32,000 nt of DNA, taken from contig CP091279.1 in NCBI GenBank assembly GCA_021650915.1, positions 1,080,001 through 1,112,000 of the forward strand. The letters are read 5' to 3'. The position numbers and the translations under genes were made by a program. Shown here one piece after another: positions 6,639-23,447 of this stretch. The DNA is from Candidatus Brocadia sp. GTDB taxonomy: Bacteria; Planctomycetota; Brocadiia; Brocadiales; Brocadiaceae. Within the stretch, counting starts at the first letter, position 1. Each line of letters begins with the position of its first letter. The notes under the pieces were generated by a model. The model searched no databases. It saw only the letters and a program-made list of their open reading frames with translations, and had not been told where the DNA came from.

Positions 6639-9600
6639 TTGAGCAAAATTACCGAAAGCGATATTGAACAATATACCATTGAGGAATTAAAAACCCTGGG
6701 CTTTCAGTTCCTTCACGGGCCAGATATTGCTCCCGATGGTGAGTTTCCCGAACGGCAGGCTTATAGTGACATTGTTTTGGTGGGCAGGCTTAGGGCTGCC
6801 ATTCAAAGGCTTAATCCAAACATCCCTGCGGGTGCCAGGGAACAGGCACTTCGTGAAGTGCAGCGTATAAATTCACCTGAATTGCTTACCAATAATGAGT
6901 CATTTCACCATTTCCTTACCGATGGTGTTCCAGTTACTTATCGTTCTCCTCTCCCTCTGGGAGAGGTTGGGAGAGGGTCTGATGAAAAATCAGATTACGT
7001 CTGGCTCATCGATTTTAACAATCCTCTCAACAATGAATTTCTGATGGTCAATCAGTACACGGTCATTGAGAACAACCAGAACAAACGGCCTGATATTTTA
7101 CTCTTTGTCAATGGCATTCCCTTAGTGCTGATTGAATTAAAAAATCCAGCAGATGAAAATGCTACCATCAAAAAGGCCTTTGACCAGATACAAACCTACA
7201 AGGCGACTATTCCAAGTCTTTTTACCTTCAACGCCTTTTGTGTTATTTCTGATGGTCACGAATGCAAGGCTGGCAGCACTTCGGCGGGTTACAATCGTTT
7301 TATGGCATGGAAGCTTGCAAACGGCAAAAAAGAGGTTTCAAAGTTTGTACCGGAGTTAGAAATCCTCATACAAGGGATGCTAAATCCCATCACCTTATTA
7401 GACCTTGTTCGCAACTTCATCGTATTTGAAAAATCTATTTCTACGAAACCCTCACCCTTACATCCCTCTCCCAGTGGGAGAGGGAACGCGGGAGAGGGTT
7501 CTGTCTTACAGATTGAAACGGTGAAGAAGGTGGCAGCCTATCATCAATATTATGCGGTCAATAAGGCTATCGAAAGTACCCTGCGGGCGGCAGGGTACTT
7601 TCAACCCTCCCTCAGTCCCTCCCAAAAGGAGGGAATCAATGCCTCTCCCTTTGTGAGAGATACAAGAGAGGGTGTTTGTAGAGAGAGTCATTATAGAGGT
7701 GGTTTGGTGTTTTCCGGGTTACTCAATAAGGCAAAAGAGTTAAGAAAAAAACAAACTCCGGCGGAAGAAGTGTTTTGGCAATTAGTGCGCGACAAAAAAT
7801 TCTTTGGTCTAAAATTCCGAAGACAACACCAGATTGGACCTTACATTGTTGACTTTTACTGCCACGAACATAAACTGATTGTTGAATTAGATGGAGAAAT
7901 TCATCAAATAGAAGGACAGCAAAAACATGATACAACGAAGGATAAATATCTTACCTCATTAGGAAACAAAGTTATTCGTTTCGCCAATAATGAGATTTTA
8001 ACCCAAACAGATAAAACCCTTGAAAAAATAGCCAATCTCCTCTCCCTTTGGGAGAGGTCGGGAGAGGGTAACGTAGGCAATAAAAAAGCAGGAGTTATTT
8101 GGCATACACAGGGTTCTGGGAAAAGCCTGAGCATGGTGTTTTATGCGGGCAAACTGATTACATCCGAGGCGATGCAAAATCCCACTATTGTTGTTATCAC
8201 TGACCGTAATGACCTGGATGACCAGTTGTTTGACACCTTTGCATCTTCAAAACAGTTGTTGAGGCAAGAGCCGGTGCAGGCAAGAGACAGGGAGGATTTG
8301 AAAGACCTGTTGAAAGTGGCTTCCGGCGGCATTGTGTTCACTACTATTCAAAAGTTTTTACCAGAAGCAGGTAAGGCAGCATACGATCGGCTTTCTGACA
8401 GGGACAACATCGTTGTTATAGCGGATGAAGCCCACAGAACCCAATATGGCTTTGAGGCAAAGTTGCATGACGAAAGAGACAAGGACACCAAAGAGGTCAT
8501 TGGAAAACGCATAGCCTACGGCTTTGCCAAGTATATGAGAGATGCCTTACCCAATGCGACTTACATTGGTTTTACCGGCACACCCATTGAAAGCACAGAC
8601 GTAAACACCCCGGCAGTATTTGGGCAGTATGTTGACATATACGATATTTCACAATCAGTCGCCGATGGCGCCACCGTTAAGATTTATTACGAAAGCCGTC
8701 TGGCAAAGGTCAATCTGGATGAAGAAGGCAGACGGTTGATTGAGGAGTTTGATAAAGAGCTTGAAGAAGATGAGGAAATAACCGACAAGCAAAGGGCTAA
8801 AGCCAAGTGGACAAAGCTTGAGGCCATTGTAGGCAATCAGGAAAGGATAAAAAACCTGGCCAGGGATATTGTTACTCATTTTGAGCAGCGTCAAGCGGTA
8901 TTTGATGGTAAGGCTATGATTGTAGCGATGAGTCGCAGGATTGCAGTTGACCTCTACAATGAGATCATCAAGTTAAGACCGGAGTGGTATAATGACGACC
9001 TGACCAAGGGCGTAATCAAAGTTATTATGACTGCATCCAGTGCCGATGGCCCTGTTATGCAGAAGCAGCACACCACGAAAACACAACGCAAGGCTTTATC
9101 TGATAGAATGAAAGACCCGGCAGACCCCTTGAAACTGGTTGTTGTTCGGGATATGTGGCTTACGGGTTTTGATGCGCCTTGTTTGCATACGCTTTATGTA
9201 GATAAACCCATGAGAGGTCACAATCTGATGCAAGCCATAGCACGGGTAAACAGGATATTCAAAGACAAACCCGGTGGTTTAGTGGTGGATTATTTAGGCA
9301 TTGCAACTGACCTCAAAAAGGCATTGGCCTTCTATGCCGATTCAGGGGGAAAAGGCGATCCGGCAGAGAGCCAGGAAAAGGCCGTTGAGATGTTTATTGA
9401 AAAATTGGAGGTAGTACGCCAACTCTTCCTTGAAGAAAGCAAAACAAAAGAAGTTATCCTTGCCGCAGAACCTACCGCTTATTATGGCAACTATCCGGGA
9501 ACAGGCTTTAATTACAAGCGTTTCTTTTCAGCGTCACCCAAAGAAAAACTTTCGATCATCTTGCAGGCAGAGGAACATATTTTGGGTCTGGCAGATGGTA

Positions 9601-10214
9601 AGAACCGTTTTATCAATGAGGTAACATTGCTTAGTAAGGCTTTTGCCTTGTCCATACCTCACGAAAAAGCATTGGCGGTAAAAGATGAAGTTGCATTCTT
9701 TCAGGCTGTAAAGGCACGGCTTGTAAAGTTTATAAGCGACGGCACAGGCAGGTCAGATATAGATATCGAGACGGCCATAAAGCAGATAATCGACGAGGCA
9801 TTGAGTTCAGACCAGGTTGTAGATATTTTTGATGCAGCAGGTATAAAAAAGCCTGAGATATCCATTTTGTCTGAGGAATTTTTGTTAGAGATACAGGGAA
9901 TGAAGCATCAGAACCTTGCCCTTGAATTGTTGAAGCGAATCCTCAATGACGAAATCAGAAGCCGTTCAAAAACTAACCTGGTGAGAAGTAAGGCATTGCT
10001 TGAAATGCTTGAGACCACCATCAAAAAGTATCAGAACAATTTGCTTTCAGCCGCCGAAATTATTCAGAAATTGATTGAGTTAGCCAGAGAGATCAAGACA
10101 GAAGACCGAAGAGGTGTAAAACTTGGTTTGTCCGAAGATGAATTGGCTTTCTACGATGCGTTGGAGACGAACAACAGTGCAGTTCAGGTTTTAGGTGATG
10201 AACGGCTCAGATTG
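6639..10214 (+). CDS. hsdR: Type I restriction endonuclease subunit HsdR, 5' exon. It carries in-frame insertions and is interrupted by a group II intron; the exon end is approximate.
   Basis: TTG start. The N-terminus is [24 protein letters not shown]. The nuclease-core region is [20 protein letters not shown]. Helicase motifs are [13 protein letters not shown] (I), [13 protein letters not shown] (II), IGFTGTP (III) and QAIARVNR (VI). HsdR homology ends at ...[24 protein letters not shown], and the ORF then runs 9 more codons into the intron to a TGA at 10239-10241. Confidence 0.9.
6948..6978 (+). repeat. 31-nt palindromic mini-element, copy 1, in frame inside hsdR
   Basis: Sequence CCTCTCCCTCTGGGAGAGGTTGGGAGAGGGT, translated as [12 protein letters not shown]. 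It interrupts the conserved ...PVTYR / ...YVWLIDF N-terminal region. Confidence 0.85.
7464..7499 (+). repeat. 36-nt palindromic mini-element, copy 2, in frame inside hsdR
   Basis: Sequence CCCTCTCCCAGTGGGAGAGGGAACGCGGGAGAGGGT, translated as [13 protein letters not shown]. It contains a perfect 9-bp hairpin, CCCTCTCCC/GGGAGAGGG. Confidence 0.85.
7642..7673 (+). repeat. Degenerate copy 3 of the palindromic mini-element, at the left edge of the DUF559 module
   Basis: Sequence CCTCTCCCTTTGTGAGAGATACAAGAGAGGGT. It has the same ends as the other copies, but the G-rich arms are decayed. Confidence 0.6.
7731..8035 (+). other. DUF559 (Vsr-like/restriction-endonuclease-fold) domain encoded in frame inside hsdR
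   Basis: [59 protein letters not shown]...[19 protein letters not shown] matches the DUF559 pattern (R..T.aE..LW..Lr...f.RQ..ig.yivDF.c....l.iElDG..H). It sits between the conserved [13 protein letters not shown] segment and helicase motif I. Confidence 0.8.
8039..8069 (+). repeat. 31-nt palindromic mini-element, copy 4, at the right edge of the DUF559 module
   Basis: Sequence CCTCTCCCTTTGGGAGAGGTCGGGAGAGGGT, translated as [12 protein letters not shown]. Confidence 0.85.
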
Positions 10215-12214
10215 GCGTGCCTTGAAGTATGGGATACCTGAGTGGTTGAAAATATCACCTCTGCGAGCCTAAATCCTCGTAGAGAAGTTTGTACCTATGC
10301 GTATACAAAGGAGCAATCCGTGTGCGTAGAAGGATAGCGTATTCCCGTGAGGGGTATGACGGAGTTACGAGGTACAGACGACCTTTTGGGGTGTATGAAT
10401 ATGGCGTGTTAGTTCGTGCCAACTGCCCTTTCTCAGTAAAGCACTGACAAATGTCCTTGTTGGAGATGATGCAAGCGATTCGGTGAAAACATCTCTGGAT
10501 AATGCGTTTGAACATACATCACGAAGGGAAAAGGGGTAATCCATATGACCGGGGGAGGACTTACGTCTTGGGAAGAAATTCCCTAACAGCGAGGTATAAG
10601 GGAAATCCGAAATCCAAGCTGTATGAGATGGTGACGGACGACTGGCTCTCACAGGTCTGTCTTTGAAGTCGTCAGCAGTGCTCATAATAGTTTCTGGTGT
10701 AAGCCGGAAATGAAGGGGCATAACCGTAGTGGAGTTGATGAAAGTGGTAGATTGAATACGTTCCATGAGAAAAGAGACTCTTTGCATGGGCAAGTAGTAG
10801 CAAGAGCCTCTCTTGTTTTGCCTCTGTCAGGAGGAATCTCGACTCAGGAAACACGATTGACAAGTCTATTATCCGGAATCAATCAAAAGGAACATATCGG
10901 GAGATGCTTAAGTATCATTCTTTAAGAGACAAGGTATTCAGTCTGAGAAACCTTTATGCGGCTTTTGGGCACGTAAAGAAGAATAAAGGCAAGGCTGGTC
11001 TCGACAGGGTAAGTATTAAGCAGTTTGAAAGTGACCTTGAGAATAATCTACAAGCTATTCACAAGGAACTGAAAACCGCCATATACAACCCTGCGCCCGT
11101 CTTAAGGGTCTACATTCCCAAAGGCAGGCATGACAAGAGACCTCTTGGCATTCCCATTGTCAAGGACAGGGTAGTACAGCAGGCGTTCAGACAAATCATA
11201 GAGCCAATATTCGAGAAAGAATTCTCGGATAACAGCTTTGGATTTCGTCCAAACAGATGCTGTCATGATGCTATCAAACGGATTGAACAGTATAAGCAGC
11301 AAGGGTATCGGAACATTTTGGACGCCGATATAAAGGCGTTCTATGACACCATACCTCACAAGCTTATCATGAACTCCTTGCGTGAGAAAATCGCTGACGG
11401 ATGGGTGTTGAACAGTATCGAGAACATGCTCAAGGCAGGGGTCATGGAGAACGGCATCGTGCACGAGACAAATCAAGGCACTCCGCAAGGAGGCGTCATA
11501 TCCCCCTTGCTTGCAAACCTTATCGGTGACATCATCGACAAGGAGCTTGAAAAGGCAGGATATAAATTTGTCCGCTATGCCGATGACTTCATTGTCATGA
11601 CTAAAACAAAAGAAGAACTCCCTACCGCCCTTCAGTACGTCAAAGAAATCATCGAAGGGAAACTTGAAATGAAGCTGAGCGAGGATAAAACCAGGCTCAC
11701 CAACTTCAAACGAGGCTTCCGGTTTCTCGGATATAATTTCATGGGCAAGAACAAGGGTGTAAGCATGAAATCCCTGGACAAACTCAAGGACGCCGTTAGA
11801 GACATCACCAAACGCACACAAGGCGTCAACCTGCAAGCCGTCATTGATACATTAAATCCTGTCATAAGGGGACATGTCAACTATTTTCGGCTGGGCAATG
11901 TACAAACGGTATATCGCTCGTTAGACTGCTGGGTACGCATGAGACTGAGAAGTTTCAAGTTTTCGAGAAAATGGAAAACTGACAACAAACGTTTCCCGGT
12001 ACACCGATTCTTTAAGATGGGGTTACTCTCATTTGAAAGAGAATTTCTTAAGGCACGTGCGAAGGCATGATAGTTTACTTTTCTCTGCTCCAGAGCAACA
12101 CTATGGGGTCGCTAACTACGGGAAAGCCGTATGGTTTAAAAGGATACTTTGTCACGTTGTCCAAAGTATCTGGCGACGATTGGGGGTTGGAGGCGGTTCG
12201 CCTCCTTCCTACCA
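10215..12214 (+). mobile_element. Group II intron (~2.0 kb) inserted in the 3' part of hsdR; boundaries are good to about +/-6 nt
   Basis: An RT/maturase ORF lies inside it. HsdR homology stops at ~10211-10217 and resumes at ~12213-12218. About 690 nt of structured non-coding sequence precede the ORF. The 3' end is GGAGGCGGTTCGCCTCCTTCCTAC (a hairpin followed by a ..AC end). The 5' end reads GCGTGCC rather than a clean GTGYG. Confidence 0.75.
10904..12070 (+). CDS. Group II intron reverse transcriptase/maturase (no endonuclease domain)
   Basis: 388 aa. Motifs are RPLGIPIVKDRVVQQA (RT2), FGFRPNR (RT3), DADIKAFYDTIPH (RT4), GTPQGGVISPLLANL (RT4-5) and VRYADDFIV (RT5 YADD). The X/maturase region is LNPVIRGHVNYFRLGN. 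Confidence 0.95.
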   Translation: MLKYHSLRDKVFSLRNLYAAFGHVKKNKGKAGLDRVSIKQFESDLENNLQAIHKELKTAIYNPAPVLRVYIPKGRHDKRPLGIPIVKDRVVQQAFRQIIEPIFEKEFSDNSFGFRPNRCCHDAIKRIEQYKQQGYRNILDADIKAFYDTIPHKLIMNSLREKIADGWVLNSIENMLKAGVMENGIVHETNQGTPQGGVISPLLANLIGDIIDKELEKAGYKFVRYADDFIVMTKTKEELPTALQYVKEIIEGKLEMKLSEDKTRLTNFKRGFRFLGYNFMGKNKGVSMKSLDKLKDAVRDITKRTQGVNLQAVIDTLNPVIRGHVNYFRLGNVQTVYRSLDCWVRMRLRSFKFSRKWKTDNKRFPVHRFFKMGLLSFEREFLKARAKA

Positions 12215-12424
12215 GCTATTGCACGGGAAATTGCGGAGAAGGTAAAGGCCAATGCAACGATAGATTGGACTATTCGGGAAAGTGCCAGGGCAAAGCTGAT
12301 GGTACTGGTAAGAAGAACTTTAAACAAATACGGGTATCCACCAGACAAGCAGCAAAAGGCAATTGACACCGTTTTGAAACAAGCAGAGGTACTGGCGGAT
12401 TACGTTGTTCGAGTCAAAGGATAA
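12215..12424 (+). CDS. hsdR: hsdR 3' exon (conserved HsdR C-terminal region); start approximate
   Basis: [63 protein letters not shown] is the conserved type I R-subunit C-terminus that normally follows ..LGDE.L... In-frame junctions exist, for example 10214|12215. Confidence 0.85.
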
Positions 12425-12477
12425 TACGTTACTACTATCGTTAGCTAAGGCGGTATTTAGGGGATCGCAATTGAAAA

Positions 12478-12711
12478 TGCGCAGACGCATATAGTATTAC
12501 TGTATGAAAACTTCTTTTTTTTGTAAGGTTTTTCACAAACCACTTTCAGGAGGTGCCGTTTTTTATGAGGGAAAGATTGCTTCGCTTCACTCGCAATGAC
12601 AACATGCAGTGTACCATCAGAGTGCATGGCCGGTGTCATTGCGAGGGCCTTTTCCGAAGCAATCTCCCCGCTTTCATAAAGGAAATTTGGTTGCGGCTGT
12701 GCCGCGCTATG
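12478..12711 (+). repeat. Solo copy of the ~220-bp hairpin repeat, same orientation as the 5370-5930 array
   Basis: Positions 12618-12711 are identical to 5838-5931 (GGCCGGTGTCATTGCGAGGGCCTTTTCCGAAGCAATCTCCCCGCTTTCATAAAGGAAATTTGGTTGCGGCTGTGCCGCGCTATG). The rest is more than 90 percent similar by eye. The hairpin is at 12574-12665. Confidence 0.9.
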
Positions 12712-12742
12712 TATAGTCTTTGCAAATTATGAAGTTCACGCT

Positions 12743-14149
12743 TTTGTTAGCAAATATTTGGTAGAGTAGAAAAAGAGAGACTTGGTTAAAGAAAAAGCCC
12801 TCCAAATATGGTAAAAAATAGTTTTGATACAAGAAACTAAACCATAAAGAGAAGGAGGGCTATATGGGAGCAACCCCATGCACAGATGGTATCACAATAG
12901 AATTTGGTTGTCAAATTCGGGTTGAATTAAAGGACGGCAGCCTGGAGTCGATTCTCAAGGCATTTTGCAAGATACTGCCGGAGATATTAAGGGATTTTAT
13001 TCAGAAGATCGTGGTTGGTTTTGGTGAGAGTGCGATGGCGCAATCACGGAAGCCATTTTGCTGCGACGAATGTGGGAATGACAAGGAGTTTATCTGGAAG
13101 ACGAGGCATGGAAAAGAGACGAAGATACTGACGGTCTTTCAGTGGTTGAGATTAGAGCAGTTGCAGGTGCAGTGCAAGAGGTGCGGTCATAAGATGTATA
13201 TAACGCGAAAGCTTCTGGGGATGGAGCGGATGAAGCGAATACCACCGGAGACGTATCGGAAGCTTGGGCTGGTAGGATCGTTAACGACCTACCGGGTAGC
13301 GAAGAAGATCGTGTCGATGTTTGGCTGGACAGTAGACAAGATGACGATATGGAAATCGGTACAAAAGACGGCAGCAGAGATAGATTTTCAACTCGACGAG
13401 AAGGGACTTCCCCTGGGAGAAGCAGACGGGACAGGGGTAGGGATTAAGGGGATAGCCAAACGAGGCAAGGAACTCAAGGTCTTTGTGCAATACAAGAGCG
13501 GTGGAGGGGTGAGAGTGGCAGGGCTTGACATAGGGGATTACAACGGTAGTTGGGATAAGCTTTTTGGTAAGAGTGTTAAGGTGTTCAGGAAGTTTTCCCG
13601 GTTTCTTTTGATAACCGATGGAGACACCTCTATTTTGGATAGTTTGAAAGGGAAGATCAAGGTGCTTGTACAGAGATGTTTGTGGCATATTCCGTATCAG
13701 GCAAAGTATGTATTGTGGCAAGATGGGGTCAAGAGCAAGGGGAAAGAATGGCTGGAGGTGATGTCGGAGCTTATGGAGGTCTGTGCGATACGGCCATTGG
13801 TTGATTGTCAGAAGACCATCGAGAAAATGATAGAGTCCAAGAGGAAACGATTGGATGCGGTGATTCAGCATTGTTTGTCGAAGGGATATGCTCATACCGC
13901 ATCCTATCTTGAGAATGCCAGGCCTGATATGTTTACGGCGATAGAAAAGAGGCTCAATGGCAGAACGACAAGTAAAGTAGAGCGCGTCATGCGTACGGTT
14001 AACCTGCGGGTGAATGTGAGCAAATGGAGTGTTGCTGGGGCGCTGAACGTTACCAAAATTCGGCTTGCCTATTACTACAACGGCTTTGATGCGTGACAAC
14101 TATACATTGGAGGACTTTTCTCAGGTCTCCACTTGACAACGCTACTAAA
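12743..14149 (+). mobile_element. Insertion sequence, copy 1 (intact). The right end is defined by comparison with copy 2; the left end is only estimated.
   Basis: It is near-identical to the inverted copy at 30700-32000, and identity stops at ...CACTTGACAACGCTACTAAA (14149). The left end is guessed from a weak terminal inverted-repeat match (TTTTGTTAGC at ~12742 versus TTTAGTAGC). Confidence 0.7.
12864..14096 (+). CDS. IS transposase, probably DDE-type, with an N-terminal zinc ribbon. Family not assigned; possibly ISLre2/ISKra4-like, at low confidence.
   Basis: 410 aa. A GGAGGG RBS precedes it. The zinc ribbon is CCDECG...CKRCG. Candidate acidic catalytic residues lie in EADGTGV and LLITDGDTS. 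A second, almost identical copy exists in the window. Confidence 0.8.
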   Translation: MGATPCTDGITIEFGCQIRVELKDGSLESILKAFCKILPEILRDFIQKIVVGFGESAMAQSRKPFCCDECGNDKEFIWKTRHGKETKILTVFQWLRLEQLQVQCKRCGHKMYITRKLLGMERMKRIPPETYRKLGLVGSLTTYRVAKKIVSMFGWTVDKMTIWKSVQKTAAEIDFQLDEKGLPLGEADGTGVGIKGIAKRGKELKVFVQYKSGGGVRVAGLDIGDYNGSWDKLFGKSVKVFRKFSRFLLITDGDTSILDSLKGKIKVLVQRCLWHIPYQAKYVLWQDGVKSKGKEWLEVMSELMEVCAIRPLVDCQKTIEKMIESKRKRLDAVIQHCLSKGYAHTASYLENARPDMFTAIEKRLNGRTTSKVERVMRTVNLRVNVSKWSVAGALNVTKIRLAYYYNGFDA

Positions 14150-21427: not shown

Positions 21428-21940
21428 AATTAAGTATGGTGTCCGTACGCAGTAACATTTGTTTATTCTTACGGGTTAAAGTCCCGTCCGGGGAATTATC
21501 CGTTCACCCCGGTAGTTCAAGGGAGCGGCGTCTGAGCAATCAGGGGTCGTAAGTTCCCAATTGGCAAAACCGCAGGCCGCAGCGCAAGCGAACCTACAAG
21601 TAGCCTCGTCAATACAAATTGAAGATGCCGACCCCGTGGACACGTGGGGAAGGCCGAAGATTGCAGACTCAGGCAACGGAAGGAGTCTGTAATATCTTCC
21701 GGGGTAGCAGGGGCGGTATGCAGTGGAAGATAAACAGACCAGTGCTGGAGACCCTATGCAGTAATGTTTGAGGGGCATAAACCGCTCTGTATAAGGAAAC
21801 GAAATCACAGCGGGCTGTATAGGGAGTCGGAGGGGTTCATGATACCGTTTGAGGACAAGGGACAACAAAACCCTGTTCGAGGAAAGGAACCCTGCTTTGT
21901 TCATGCAACCGAAGAGTAGAGGAAAAGGGAGATTGCAGAA

Positions 21941-23257
21941 ATGCTAACAACCCCGGAAAAGATCAGGATACTACAGAGGAAGCTATACCGAAAGGCCAAG
22001 CAAGAACCAACCTACCGCTTCTACGCCCTCTATGACAAGGTATTCCGGGCAGACATCCTCAGTCATGCTTACACCCTTGTCCGTGCCAACAAAGGGAGCG
22101 CCGGGATAGACGGCGTAACCTTCGAGGCCATCGAGGAAAGAGAAGGGGTATCCGCCTTTCTGGCGGAACTGCAAGAAGCACTCAGGAGCAAGACCTATCA
22201 AGCAAGCCCTGTAAAACGAGTAATGATACCCAAGACGGACGGAACGGAACGCCCGTTAGGCATTCCCACCATCCGTGACAGGGTAGCGCAGATGGCCGTA
22301 AAACTGGTCATAGAACCCATTTTTGAAGCCGATTTCTGCGAATGTTCATACGGGTTCAGGCCGAAGAAATCTGCCCACGATGCCGTAGATGACGTAGCAT
22401 ATACCCTCAACAAGGGATATACCGAAATCATAGACGCCGACCTGTCCAAATACTTTGACACCATCCCCCATGCCAAGCTTATGGCTGTGGTAGCAGAGCG
22501 CATCAGTGACGGTGAGATACTGCACCTGATAAAGACGTGGCTCAAGGCTCCGGTCATAGAAAAAGGCAGAGACGGAAAACAAAGGAACATCGGCGGAGGT
22601 AAAGGGAACCGGAAAGGCACACCTCAAGGAGGAGTAATCTCACCGTTACTAGCCAATCTCTACCTGCACCTCCTGGACAGGATATGGGAGAGACATCGAC
22701 TGGAGAAGAAACTCGGAGCCAGATTAGTACGCTTTGCCGATGACTTTGTCGTACTGTGCAGGCAAGGAACTGAACAGCCAATGGCGATAACAAAGCGGGT
22801 GCTGGACAAACTGGGACTGACGTTAAACGAGGCAAAGAGCCGTGTAGTAGACGCCATGAAAGAGGGATTTACCTTTCTTGGGTTTGAACTTCAAAAGAGG
22901 AAGAATTGGCGCACGGGGAAGAGTTATCCCCATGTTCAGCCGTCGAAGAAATCTCTCAAGAAGATAAAAGACCACATTACGGCACTTACCAGCAGGAACA
23001 GGTCCCCTCTACCGTTTGAAGCGATAGTCAAAGAGGTGAATACGGCACTGATAGGATGGACAGGATACTTCCATTATCGCAATTGCAGCAGAGTCCTCAA
23101 GCAAGTAAGAGAACACGCTCAATTCCGGCTTCGGATACACCTGTACAGACGTCATAAAATCAGAGACAGGAAGACAGGGCTTAAGCGATACACAAACAGC
23201 ATGTTATATGAGAGATATGGTCTTTACAAAGTGCCGACCACAGCGGTATGGAGATAG
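21941..23257 (+). CDS. Group II intron reverse transcriptase/maturase (no En domain)
   Basis: 438 aa. Motifs are RPLGIPTIRDRVAQMA, YGFRPKKSAHDA, DADLSKYFDTIPH, GTPQGGVISPLLANLYL and VRFADDFVV (FADD variant). The maturase X region is ALIGWTGYFHYRN. Confidence 0.95.
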   Translation: MLTTPEKIRILQRKLYRKAKQEPTYRFYALYDKVFRADILSHAYTLVRANKGSAGIDGVTFEAIEEREGVSAFLAELQEALRSKTYQASPVKRVMIPKTDGTERPLGIPTIRDRVAQMAVKLVIEPIFEADFCECSYGFRPKKSAHDAVDDVAYTLNKGYTEIIDADLSKYFDTIPHAKLMAVVAERISDGEILHLIKTWLKAPVIEKGRDGKQRNIGGGKGNRKGTPQGGVISPLLANLYLHLLDRIWERHRLEKKLGARLVRFADDFVVLCRQGTEQPMAITKRVLDKLGLTLNEAKSRVVDAMKEGFTFLGFELQKRKNWRTGKSYPHVQPSKKSLKKIKDHITALTSRNRSPLPFEAIVKEVNTALIGWTGYFHYRNCSRVLKQVREHAQFRLRIHLYRRHKIRDRKTGLKRYTNSMLYERYGLYKVPTTAVWR

Positions 23258-23285
23258 CGCATGCCTTATGGTGAAGGGCATCGGA

Positions 23286-23318
23286 AAGCCGTGTGCGGGA
23301 AAACCGCAAGCACGGTTT
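23286..23318 (+). ncRNA. Group II intron domain V (catalytic hairpin) of intron 2
   Basis: AAGCCGUGU-GCGG-GAAAA-CCGC-AA-GCACGGUUU. It has a 9-bp lower stem with the AGC triad, a 2-nt AA bulge, a 4-bp upper stem and a GAAA-type loop. I paired it by hand. Confidence 0.85.
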
Positions 23319-23447
23319 GATGAGGGAGGACTGGCGAAATAGCATGGTGAGGCTACTGAGGCACTGCCAGACGAAAGGGGCAGAAACAGATAGGCCAACC
23401 TAAACTATAGATAGCCAGTTCCCTACTCTACCCGAAATTGCCATGAG

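Follow-up and report, generated by a model that had tools for sequence, protein, structure and literature searches.

How can a single restriction gene hold several copies of one short palindromic DNA sequence in its reading frame without that frame being broken by any of them, and what might such a sequence be? The question is raised by hsdR in a 32,000-nucleotide stretch of DNA from Candidatus Brocadia sp. (assembly GCA_021650915.1, contig CP091279.1, positions 1,080,001 to 1,112,000 of the forward strand; the whole of this stretch is referred to here as the window). An initial annotation had described four in-frame copies of a C-rich/G-rich mini-element in this gene, at 6948-6978, 7464-7499, 7642-7673 and 8039-8069, and had proposed a tiny mobile or templated element that coding sequence can tolerate. 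These stretches and their translations read as described, but they do not represent four insertions; hsdR holds two solo copies of the repeat and, in addition, an in-frame module encoding a DUF559 domain, to which the remaining copies belong as its ends and as one internal degenerate copy. Our preferred explanation, to which we assign a probability of roughly 0.6, is that hsdR has been colonised by a selfish, translation-tolerated DUF559/repeat element that exists in two forms and has miniature derivatives.

That the stretches might be ordinary low-complexity linkers or a chance palindrome, with no identity as an element, is suggested by their peptides, which are rich in Pro, Gly, Ser and Glu like many linkers, but we consider this account extremely improbable. 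All ten of the exact GGGAGAGG octamers in the window lie within hsdR, between 6948 and 8067, where 0.94 would be expected for the window as a whole, and none of 100 dinucleotide shuffles of the window reached ten. Hairpins of a pyrimidine and a purine arm whose stem reaches 6 bp or more number four in the window, all of them in hsdR, against a mean of 0.14 in the shuffles.

We use the term triplex motif (TM) for the repeat, in which one C-rich arm precedes two G-rich arms that are mirror repeats of each other. The recognition of one C-rich and two G-rich arms in the initial annotation was correct; this is the defining triplex-forming design of the repeats known as BoxC, PIT or TM and is at the same time a G-quadruplex (G4) motif. 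The three-block design (one pyrimidine and two purine blocks, with loops of 1-6 nt) is present at 6948-6978, 7464-7499 and 8039-8069 and, inverted, at 7604-7636. By inspection, the purine arms GGGAGAGG(G) and GGGAGAGGG are mirror-symmetric, a design in which triads of G.G:C and of A.A:T (or T.A:T) can form. Altogether there are five TM copies in the window, all in one gene and in frame (Table 1); the inverted copy had escaped the initial annotation, as had the outer C arm of the site-2 copy (7448-7457), the DUF559 domain at amino acids 363-468 and the splitting of hsdR by a group II intron-like insert.

Table 1. Features of hsdR and its inserted elements in the window (positions are those of the window)
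Feature	Coordinates	Strand	Description
hsdR, first part	6639..10241	+	1200 codons to an intron-created stop; carries all TM and DUF559 elements
Solo TM, HsdR site 1	6945..6978	+	CCTCTCCC C arm, TCT loop, GGGAGAGG G arm, TT, third arm GGGAGAGGGT
Solo nested TM, HsdR site 2	7448..7499	+	Outer C arm ACCCTCACCC (7448-7457), inner hairpin CCCTCTCCC-AGT-GGGAGAGGG, AACGC, outer G arm GGGAGAGGGT
DUF559/TM module, whole	7604..8069	+	466 nt, ~155 codons; cleanly absent from the nearest backbones P0003, P0004 and P0005
Inverted TM, module left end	7604..7636	-	ACCCTCCC-TCAGT-CCCTCCC-AAAA-GGAGGGA: two C arms, one G arm
Degenerate TM inside the left part of the module	7642..7673	+	CCTCTCCCTTTGTGAGAGATACAAGAGAGGGT; repeat family D2, 81%
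DUF559 coding segment	7692..8042	+	Vsr-like endonuclease family of PD-(D/E)XK fold; in frame with hsdR
Direct TM, module right end	8036..8069	+	CCTCTCCC-TTT-GGGAGAGG-TC-GGGAGAGGGT; 12 residues when translated
Group II intron-like insert splitting hsdR	10215..12218 (approximate boundaries)	+	Reverse transcriptase/maturase open reading frame 10904-12070; Pfam RVT_1 and GIIM
hsdR tail, last ~65-68 codons	12219..12415 (tblastn match 12209-12412)	+	90% identity to the C-terminus of homologues

The individual copies differ in how much of the design they retain. At site 1 the TM lacks the outer C arm, is translated as 12 residues and shares 94% identity over 34 nt with the right end of the module at 8036-8069 (repeat family D1). 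The element at site 2, translated as 18 residues, is a nested 52-nt double-stem hairpin with a predicted DNA fold of -19 kcal/mol (z = -5.0; none of 200 shuffles was as stable), and its G-rich half is a canonical G4 motif, G3-AGA-G3-AACGC-G3-AGA-G3. The inverted copy at the left end of the module is a CCCTCCC/GGGAGGG stem variant of 11 residues when translated and forms inverted repeat I1 with 8042-8069. The third arm GGGAGAGGGT is common to all three direct copies in the window, while other lineages have GGGTGAGGGT. Because this rare arm is common to three copies and site 1 is 94% like the right end, yet the site-1 copy of the closest homologue (P0003) has decayed, the TMs have probably been homogenised by gene conversion within the gene. 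An AlphaFold2 model of HsdR, built from a 13-sequence alignment, had a mean pLDDT (predicted local distance difference test score) of 43, too poor for surface mapping; in it, sites 1 and 2 fall between predicted strand pairs.

By its sequence, the hsdR mini-element is a member of the known BoxC/PIT/TM family and is not new. Holder et al. 2015 (PMC4666352) described the same sequence as the G/C-rich intrastrand triplex motif TM_ECO, formerly BoxC and PIT, and cited earlier work on the motif (Hoyne/Maher 2000), whereas the same G-rich half was treated by Doluca and colleagues (bioRxiv 10.1101/032615) as a G-quadruplex/hairpin switch, among their 'G4-hairpin-duplex switch' motifs cHPG1/2. The single strand of TM_ECO forms a stable triplex in vitro, as seen by circular dichroism and nuclear magnetic resonance, that was undetected in vivo; the motif acts neither as a promoter nor as a terminator and occurs in more than 260 genomes, including 23 copies in E. 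coli K-12 that are 'always located intergenically', and its loci are tied to local genomic instability, with no mobility activity or mobility genes found near them (PMC4666352). Triplex formation by the copies in hsdR is predicted by the design of the family. The published form, CCCTCTCCC-N3-GGGAGAGGG-N2-3-GGG(G)TGAGGG, is nearly the same sequence as that of the window copies, has the same single pyrimidine and two mirror-repeat purine arms, is very widely distributed and also comes in 'palindromic' nested or paired versions. When compared with the published consensus (CCCTCTCCC, then GGGAGAGGG-TTA/CC-GGGTGAGGG), the window copies differ only in having 8-nt arms and A for T in the third arm GGGAGAGGGT. 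A TM is free of stops in five of the six frames, and the A-for-T variant of the window clears the sixth by removing TGA, the only possible stop. They differ further from the published E. coli copies, which are intergenic and have no mobility function, in that they lie in frame in hsdR and frame a DUF559 domain.

The breadth of the family became apparent from a search with the exact pattern CCTCTCCC-N3-GGGAGAGG-N1-6-GGGNGAGGG in one genome per GTDB species. At least 120 loci were found, from nearly all phyla, and the matches listed include Pseudomonas, Xanthomonas, Enterobacteriaceae, Acinetobacter, Planctomycetota, Chloroflexota, Acidobacteriota, Cyanobacteria, Bifidobacterium, Akkermansia and others; at least 120 viral contigs of IMG/VR carry the motif as well. 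Such numbers are a further argument against chance or ordinary linkers. The common consensus of the listed genome matches is (C)CCTCTCCC-N3-GGGAGAGGG-N2-3-GGGGTGAGGG, and the pattern, although derived from the window copies, retrieves canonical copies in Enterobacteriaceae, Pseudomonas and other taxa. No Rfam family for the TM was found in a gathering-threshold scan of the window and 12 loci. The in-frame location is not peculiar to hsdR, since 33 of 152 listed genome matches lie deep within stop-to-stop open reading frames (ORFs) of at least 250 codons. Host genes with Pfam domains on both sides of the TM are confirmed for IleRS, a MeaB-methylmalonyl-CoA-mutase fusion, a YgiQ radical-SAM enzyme, an Eco57I-type methylase and a molybdopterin/cytochrome c protein, the first four of which carry a solo TM in frame. 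Genic copies of this kind appear to have gone unreported before.

The TMs of three Pseudomonas loci (L009, L025 and L080) are arranged in tandem, one every ~110-150 nt, and share a conserved flank of ~45 nt on their upstream side (..tcttccaggtcgacgta..cctcggtcggcc), which suggests a longer repeat unit in Pseudomonas; the same loci contain matches to C4 antisense RNA (phage P1/P7-type).

Between the inverted TM at 7604-7636 and the direct TM at 8039-8069 lies the DUF559 domain, PF04480, which is recognised by Pfam at amino acids 363-468 with E = 6e-36 and 123 bits (cutoff 20.6), covering positions 5-108 of the 109 in the profile. The closest solved structure is 3HRL, a Neisseria 'endonuclease-like protein' (E = 3.7e-18). 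All of the invariant columns of alignment A2 (E25, D54, E65, D67, H71, D80 and others) are kept in the window domain, and some of these residues may be catalytic. The ratio of nonsynonymous to synonymous change (pN/pS) is 0.12-0.33 for DUF559 as compared with 0.09-0.20 for host parts; the domain is under purifying selection and is maintained as a protein. Pfam finds DUF559 but no Y1_Tnp, the HUH/Y1 transposase domain, in the window HsdR. The module has one trait of intein- or homing-type elements, in that orthologues have or lack it at one conserved site, but an intein or intron as its vehicle was rejected, as inspection of the junctions revealed no intein motif (N-terminal Cys/Ser; C-terminal His-Asn followed by Cys/Ser/Thr) and the gathering-threshold scan of the window no Rfam family over the region. 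A palindrome, TACCCTGCGGGCGGCAGGGTA (7576-7597), was dropped from consideration, as it proved not to be conserved in homologues. This palindrome, TACCCTGC-GGGCG-GCAGGGTA, stands at the left junction of the module, with a similar sequence 755 nt upstream (6821-6843), and is probably due to chance.

Comparison with orthologues, by protein alignment and from the DNA of seven homologues, defines fixed sites that are empty in some genes and filled in others. The closest homologues are 90-95% identical to the window HsdR across the C-terminal 60%. Close HsdR proteins are of two kinds, those of ~1075-1085 aa without DUF559 (including P0003, P0004 and P0005) and those of 1215-1300 aa with DUF559, the latter from several phyla and 65-80% identical to the window protein. 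The module in these homologues always follows ...AIESTxxAxG, and in the DUF559-bearing HsdRs examined its left boundary is in every case ACCCTCCC..CCCTCCC-N4-GGGAGGG (PSLxPSQREG; PSLxPSQ(R/K/G)EG) and its right boundary CCTCTCCC-N3-GGGAGAGG..GGG(A/T)GAGGGT. The junctions in the window read ...AAGYFQ/PSLSPSQ... and ...SGEGN/VGNKK... (slashes mark the junctions). Up to both of them the window backbone is P0003-like (pS, the synonymous component, 0.29), yet P0003, P0004 and P0005 are cleanly without the module (STIEASGKG/GTKKG), so that module and host backbone are incongruent in the window HsdR. A few flanking HsdR residues change together with the module, and filled and empty sites differ by replacement or insertion within ~2 codons.

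The solo copies are polymorphic in a similar manner. Site 1 is filled in the window, has a decayed TM in the closest relatives (P0003, P0004 and P0005) and is empty in most homologues. Site 2 occurs in three states: it is empty in P0002, P0003 and P0034 (the last being close to P0007), holds the solo nested TM in the window, P0006, P0007, P0008 and P0058, and holds a full DUF559 module at loci L132, L133 and L140. Orthologues that have the Pro/Gly/Glu-rich segments also carry the palindrome, retained in spite of different peptides, and those without the segments lack it; the finding by which the initial annotation would have reduced the copies to linkers, namely such segments without the palindrome, is therefore not what the orthologues present. 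The HsdR of P0008 (locus L005) has, at codons 304-354, three tandem left-end hairpins (PSLGPSQREG / SPNPSQREG / SLNPSQREG) ahead of its DUF559, a local amplification of the repeat inside coding sequence.

The association between DUF559 and the TMs extends well beyond HsdR. A DUF559-profile scan of metagenome contigs provided the best 80 loci, those most similar to the window domain, which were inspected for pyrimidine/purine hairpins that pair perfectly over 7 bp or more. Within 250 nt of DUF559, such a hairpin was present on the upstream side in 49 of the 80 loci and on the downstream side in 46, and 32 loci had hairpins on either side. Near DUF559 there are 3.04 hairpins per kb, 32 times the 0.094 per kb of the outer flanks. 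As a rule the upstream TM is inverted and the downstream TM direct, an order that is reversed in a more distant DUF559 subgroup. Five loci (L137, L169, L187, L181 and L185) have their DUF559 between direct repeats of a composite unit, [TM(-)-spacer-TM(+)], of ~100 nt, as would be expected for recombinational gain and loss. The module resides in many unrelated hosts: of the 80 DUF559 copies, 62 form part of a longer ORF, always in frame, with HsdM (26 loci), HsdR (22) and HsdS (7) as hosts besides Eco57I/MmeI-type enzymes, an N6_N4 methyltransferase, MetRS, GlgB and ThiC; the genome scan added a second MetRS with a full module (L019). DUF559 genes that stand alone between TMs were found in Acinetobacter and in a sphingomonad (between rph and rdgB). 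In E. coli K-12 the DUF559 gene ycjD ends inside a degenerate hairpin, with a canonical TM ~170 nt downstream. The ycjD-fabI spacer (L128, NC_000913.3, 1351200-1351470) contains a second, decayed ycjD 3' end (GGAGACGGTGCTGGAGAATATTC...), a decayed TM and an intact BoxC/TM, and appears to be what is left of a DUF559/TM unit that was inserted repeatedly or duplicated in tandem. Neither the association nor the occurrence of a DUF559-plus-repeat module in many hosts appears to have been reported; in the openly accessible literature searched, no paper that mentions DUF559 is about repeats, and follow-ups of the triplex study name no protein partner.

These hosts bring up the possibility that DUF559 was recruited as an extra nuclease or DNA-sensing domain of restriction-modification (R-M) enzymes, with the TM stretches serving as flexible linkers and the whole inherited vertically and through the transfer of entire R-M systems. 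The low pN/pS values and the kept conserved residues of DUF559 are in accord with such a role, the HsdR-DUF559 architecture is widespread and is so annotated by JGI, and 55 of the 62 embedded copies are in R-M proteins (HsdM, HsdR, HsdS, MmeI/Eco57I-type, N6_N4 methyltransferase), although the query biased the sample towards such hosts. A recruited domain would not readily be expected at three or more different positions of HsdR (including within SWI2_SNF2 and before EcoEI_R_C) as well as in HsdM and HsdS, nor in MetRS, GlgB and ThiC, which have no need of a nuclease, and the nearest HsdR backbones are without it. The supposed linkers, moreover, are kept as DNA palindromes in three phases and are also found intergenically around standalone DUF559 genes. 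The reading of the window copies in different phases with the frame unbroken, as first annotated, is confirmed on this larger scale: the hairpins of the DUF559-carrying ORFs occur in every one of the three phases (41, 22 and 32 cases; PSPxGRG, xSQREG or PLPxGEG), so that the TM is conserved at the nucleotide rather than the peptide level. We regard recruitment, on this evidence, as quite unlikely.

A different alternative grants the TMs their identity but makes them autonomous, as structure-prone repeats spread by host replication and repair (through breaks induced by hairpins, triplexes or G4s, through slippage or through templated repair) that mark fragile, insertion-permissive sites where DUF559 merely lands or persists, without being related to the repeats as an enzyme. 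It would accommodate the very stable non-B structures of TMs in vitro and the raised local instability at E. coli TM loci with no mobility genes around them (PMC4666352), and also the fact that most TMs are without a neighbouring DUF559. It accounts less well for a 32-fold enrichment of fixed geometry that is peculiar to the flanks of DUF559, or for near-identical sequences of ~30 nt in many phyla, which are not easily understood unless there is a sequence-specific partner or horizontal spread. End variants, furthermore, co-segregate with DUF559 clades across host genes. The HsdM-hosted L138 and L151 share a DUF559 clade with the HsdR-hosted L132 and L133 (64-78% amino acid identity), and all four have the same characteristic ends, TCCCTCCC..GGGAGGGA on the left and TCTCTCCC-N3-GGGAGAGACGGAAGAGAGGGT on the right; 27 of the 80 domains have their nearest relative in another host class. 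The TM ends thus appear to travel with DUF559 from one host gene to another, and we think it unlikely that the repeats spread independently of it.

If hsdR was instead colonised by a two-form DUF559/repeat element, the notion of a mobile or templated element survives in part: presence and absence at identical sites of orthologues support it, the element itself is a known one, and its mobility and mechanism are what we infer from comparative patterns. The long form would correspond to 7604-8069, a DUF559 segment bounded by inverted TMs, and the short form to a solo TM such as those at sites 1 and 2. Neither form contains a stop in its reading frame and each has a length divisible by three, so that the ribosome reads through both; translated TMs would become loops rich in Pro, Ser, Gly, Glu and Arg, and DUF559 would become an extra folded domain between the nuclease and motor domains of HsdR. 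The DUF559 nuclease might start a recombination-dependent copying of its own module, by homing-like conversion or by Campbell-like recombination between TM units. Homing-like gene conversion is conceivable because a few flanking HsdR residues change with the module, and recombination between TM units would explain the direct composite repeats and easy loss. Solo TMs could stem from recombination between the hairpins that flank DUF559, like solo long terminal repeats, and/or from mobilisation in trans, like miniature inverted-repeat transposable elements (MITEs) or repetitive extragenic palindromic (REP) elements. Recombination of the two inner flanking hairpins would leave an outer C arm, a hairpin and an outer G arm, which is the nested palindrome of site 2. 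Since solo TMs far outnumber DUF559 genes, DUF559 could act on them only in trans, in the manner of MITEs or of REPs and their RAYT (REP-associated tyrosine transposase) proteins. The structure of the TM (hairpin or cruciform, triplex, G4) is a plausible candidate for the feature recognised by a Vsr-like nuclease. A bolder proposal, for which we would allow somewhat less than an even chance, is that DUF559 is the dedicated mobilising, copying or maintenance enzyme of BoxC/PIT/TM repeats, making up with them a pan-bacterial pair of autonomous and miniature partners like RAYT and REP; that the solo repeats would then be footprints or satellites mobilised in trans is similarly tentative.

Several observations weigh against colonisation by such an element. 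Transposition or homing has not been seen as an event, and mobility of TM_ECO between E. coli loci was not found, only local instability (PMC4666352). The comparison of filled and empty sites gave no convincing target-site duplication or defined cleavage site. Octamer and hairpin searches detected no further TM copies in the remaining 28 kb of the window. DUF559 lies within 300 nt of the TM at 3 of 120 listed genome loci and 1 of 120 listed viral loci; the association is visible from the side of DUF559 only, and ~97-99% of the listed TMs in genomes and viral contigs are without DUF559 in that distance. The host spectrum is skewed to R-M genes because the 80 loci are those most like the domain of the window, and the neighbour-joining DUF559 tree, in which hosts are interleaved, is without bootstrap support. 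Purifying selection on DUF559 and its prevalence in R-M proteins also fit a recruited functional domain.

Among systems already described, a functional analogy is offered by the Rickettsia palindromic elements (RPE), which Ogata et al. reportedly described in 2000 as lying in frame in protein genes, including essential ones, and as being translated as extra loops. These elements are of 100-150 bp and are restricted to Rickettsia and relatives; we know of no partner protein for them. The window TMs are likewise in-frame palindromes that leave the ORF intact, with no sequence relationship to RPE, but at ~30-50 bp they are shorter, they are found in bacteria at large, and DUF559 is associated with them. 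REP elements, with RAYT as their transposase, are said to have been described as REPtrons by Nunvar et al. in 2010. They resemble the TMs in combining many short palindromes with few protein genes, and in both systems inverted repeat copies stand on either side of the protein gene, a pattern that suits an autonomous element with non-autonomous derivatives. The RAYT protein belongs to the HUH/Y1 transposases (IS200/IS605 family) and REPs are extragenic, whereas DUF559 is a Vsr-like PD-(D/E)XK nuclease, the TMs considered here are genic, and their mobilisation is something that we infer. Short GC-rich hairpins that invade coding sequences are also known as the GC-rich mobile clusters, double-hairpin elements and 'byp' elements of fungal mitochondria; byp is skipped by the ribosome, whereas TMs are translated. 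With regard to MITEs, the filled and empty sites show no clear duplication and some loci have direct composite repeats of ~100 nt. Homing endonuclease genes and inteins resemble the DUF559 module in the presence or absence of a nuclease gene at a fixed site in conserved genes, in the co-change of flanking residues and in a related fold; they differ in that the module stays in the protein with no intron or intein to remove it, has many insertion sites and ends in structured repeats. Vsr-like EDxHD homing endonucleases (I-Bth0305I) are listed together with VSR/DUF559 in PMC3424549.

The gene that carries these elements has a further insertion. Pfam identifies the ORF at 6639-10241 as HsdR by HSDR_N (4-219) and SWI2_SNF2 (466-711), which stand on either side of DUF559, and by T1R_D3-like (812-885) and T1RH-like_C (902-1192) domains in the C-terminal part. 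After about codon 1192 it is broken by a ~2-kb insert with a group II intron reverse transcriptase/maturase, for which a permissive Rfam scan of 10150-12900 found no intron RNA. Because this insert adds to the TMs and the DUF559 module, hsdR is one restriction gene hosting three kinds of selfish DNA. Its neighbourhood is of the defence type, with hsdS, an AAA_21/SMC-like ATPase and a Schlafen/AlbA_2 protein and, further on, SNF2 and PLD genes. A 410-aa ORF without a Pfam match (12864-14096) belongs to a 90%-identity cluster of which several members are on the same 4.05-Mb Candidatus Brocadia contig (UJS20764, UJS21660, UJS20282 and others), and is probably a multicopy mobile-element gene. The window contains a second group II intron at 21478-23431 (Rfam RF02005 at 21478-21714 and RF00029 at 23284-23431), the reverse transcriptase/maturase ORF of which is at 21941-23257. 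Just upstream of the hsdR of P0003, which is without DUF559, an IS200/IS605-type Y1 transposase gene is found together with a RhuM gene (L001, 1850-2311), and RhuM precedes hsdR in L002 and L007 as well.

The BoxC/PIT/TM repeats have been known since the 1990s from hundreds of bacterial genomes and have been linked to genome instability, but to our knowledge no function and no way of spreading have been established for them. DUF559 is a family without an assigned function, and the conserved geometry of its association with the repeats provides a testable hypothesis for two orphans at once, with E. coli YcjD as a tractable member. Restriction enzymes and essential genes such as those of aminoacyl-tRNA synthetases can evidently carry short structured repeats, and even a whole nuclease domain, in frame, which bears on the biology of R-M systems as vehicles for selfish DNA and on protein evolution, where such elements would be a source of new loops and domains. 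For annotation it means that proteins recorded as 'HsdR/very-short-patch-repair fusion' are probably the products of invaded genes. Should DUF559 indeed be the partner of these repeats, an autonomous/miniature pair would be living in frame within genes, including essential ones, and adding a nuclease domain or a loop to its host.

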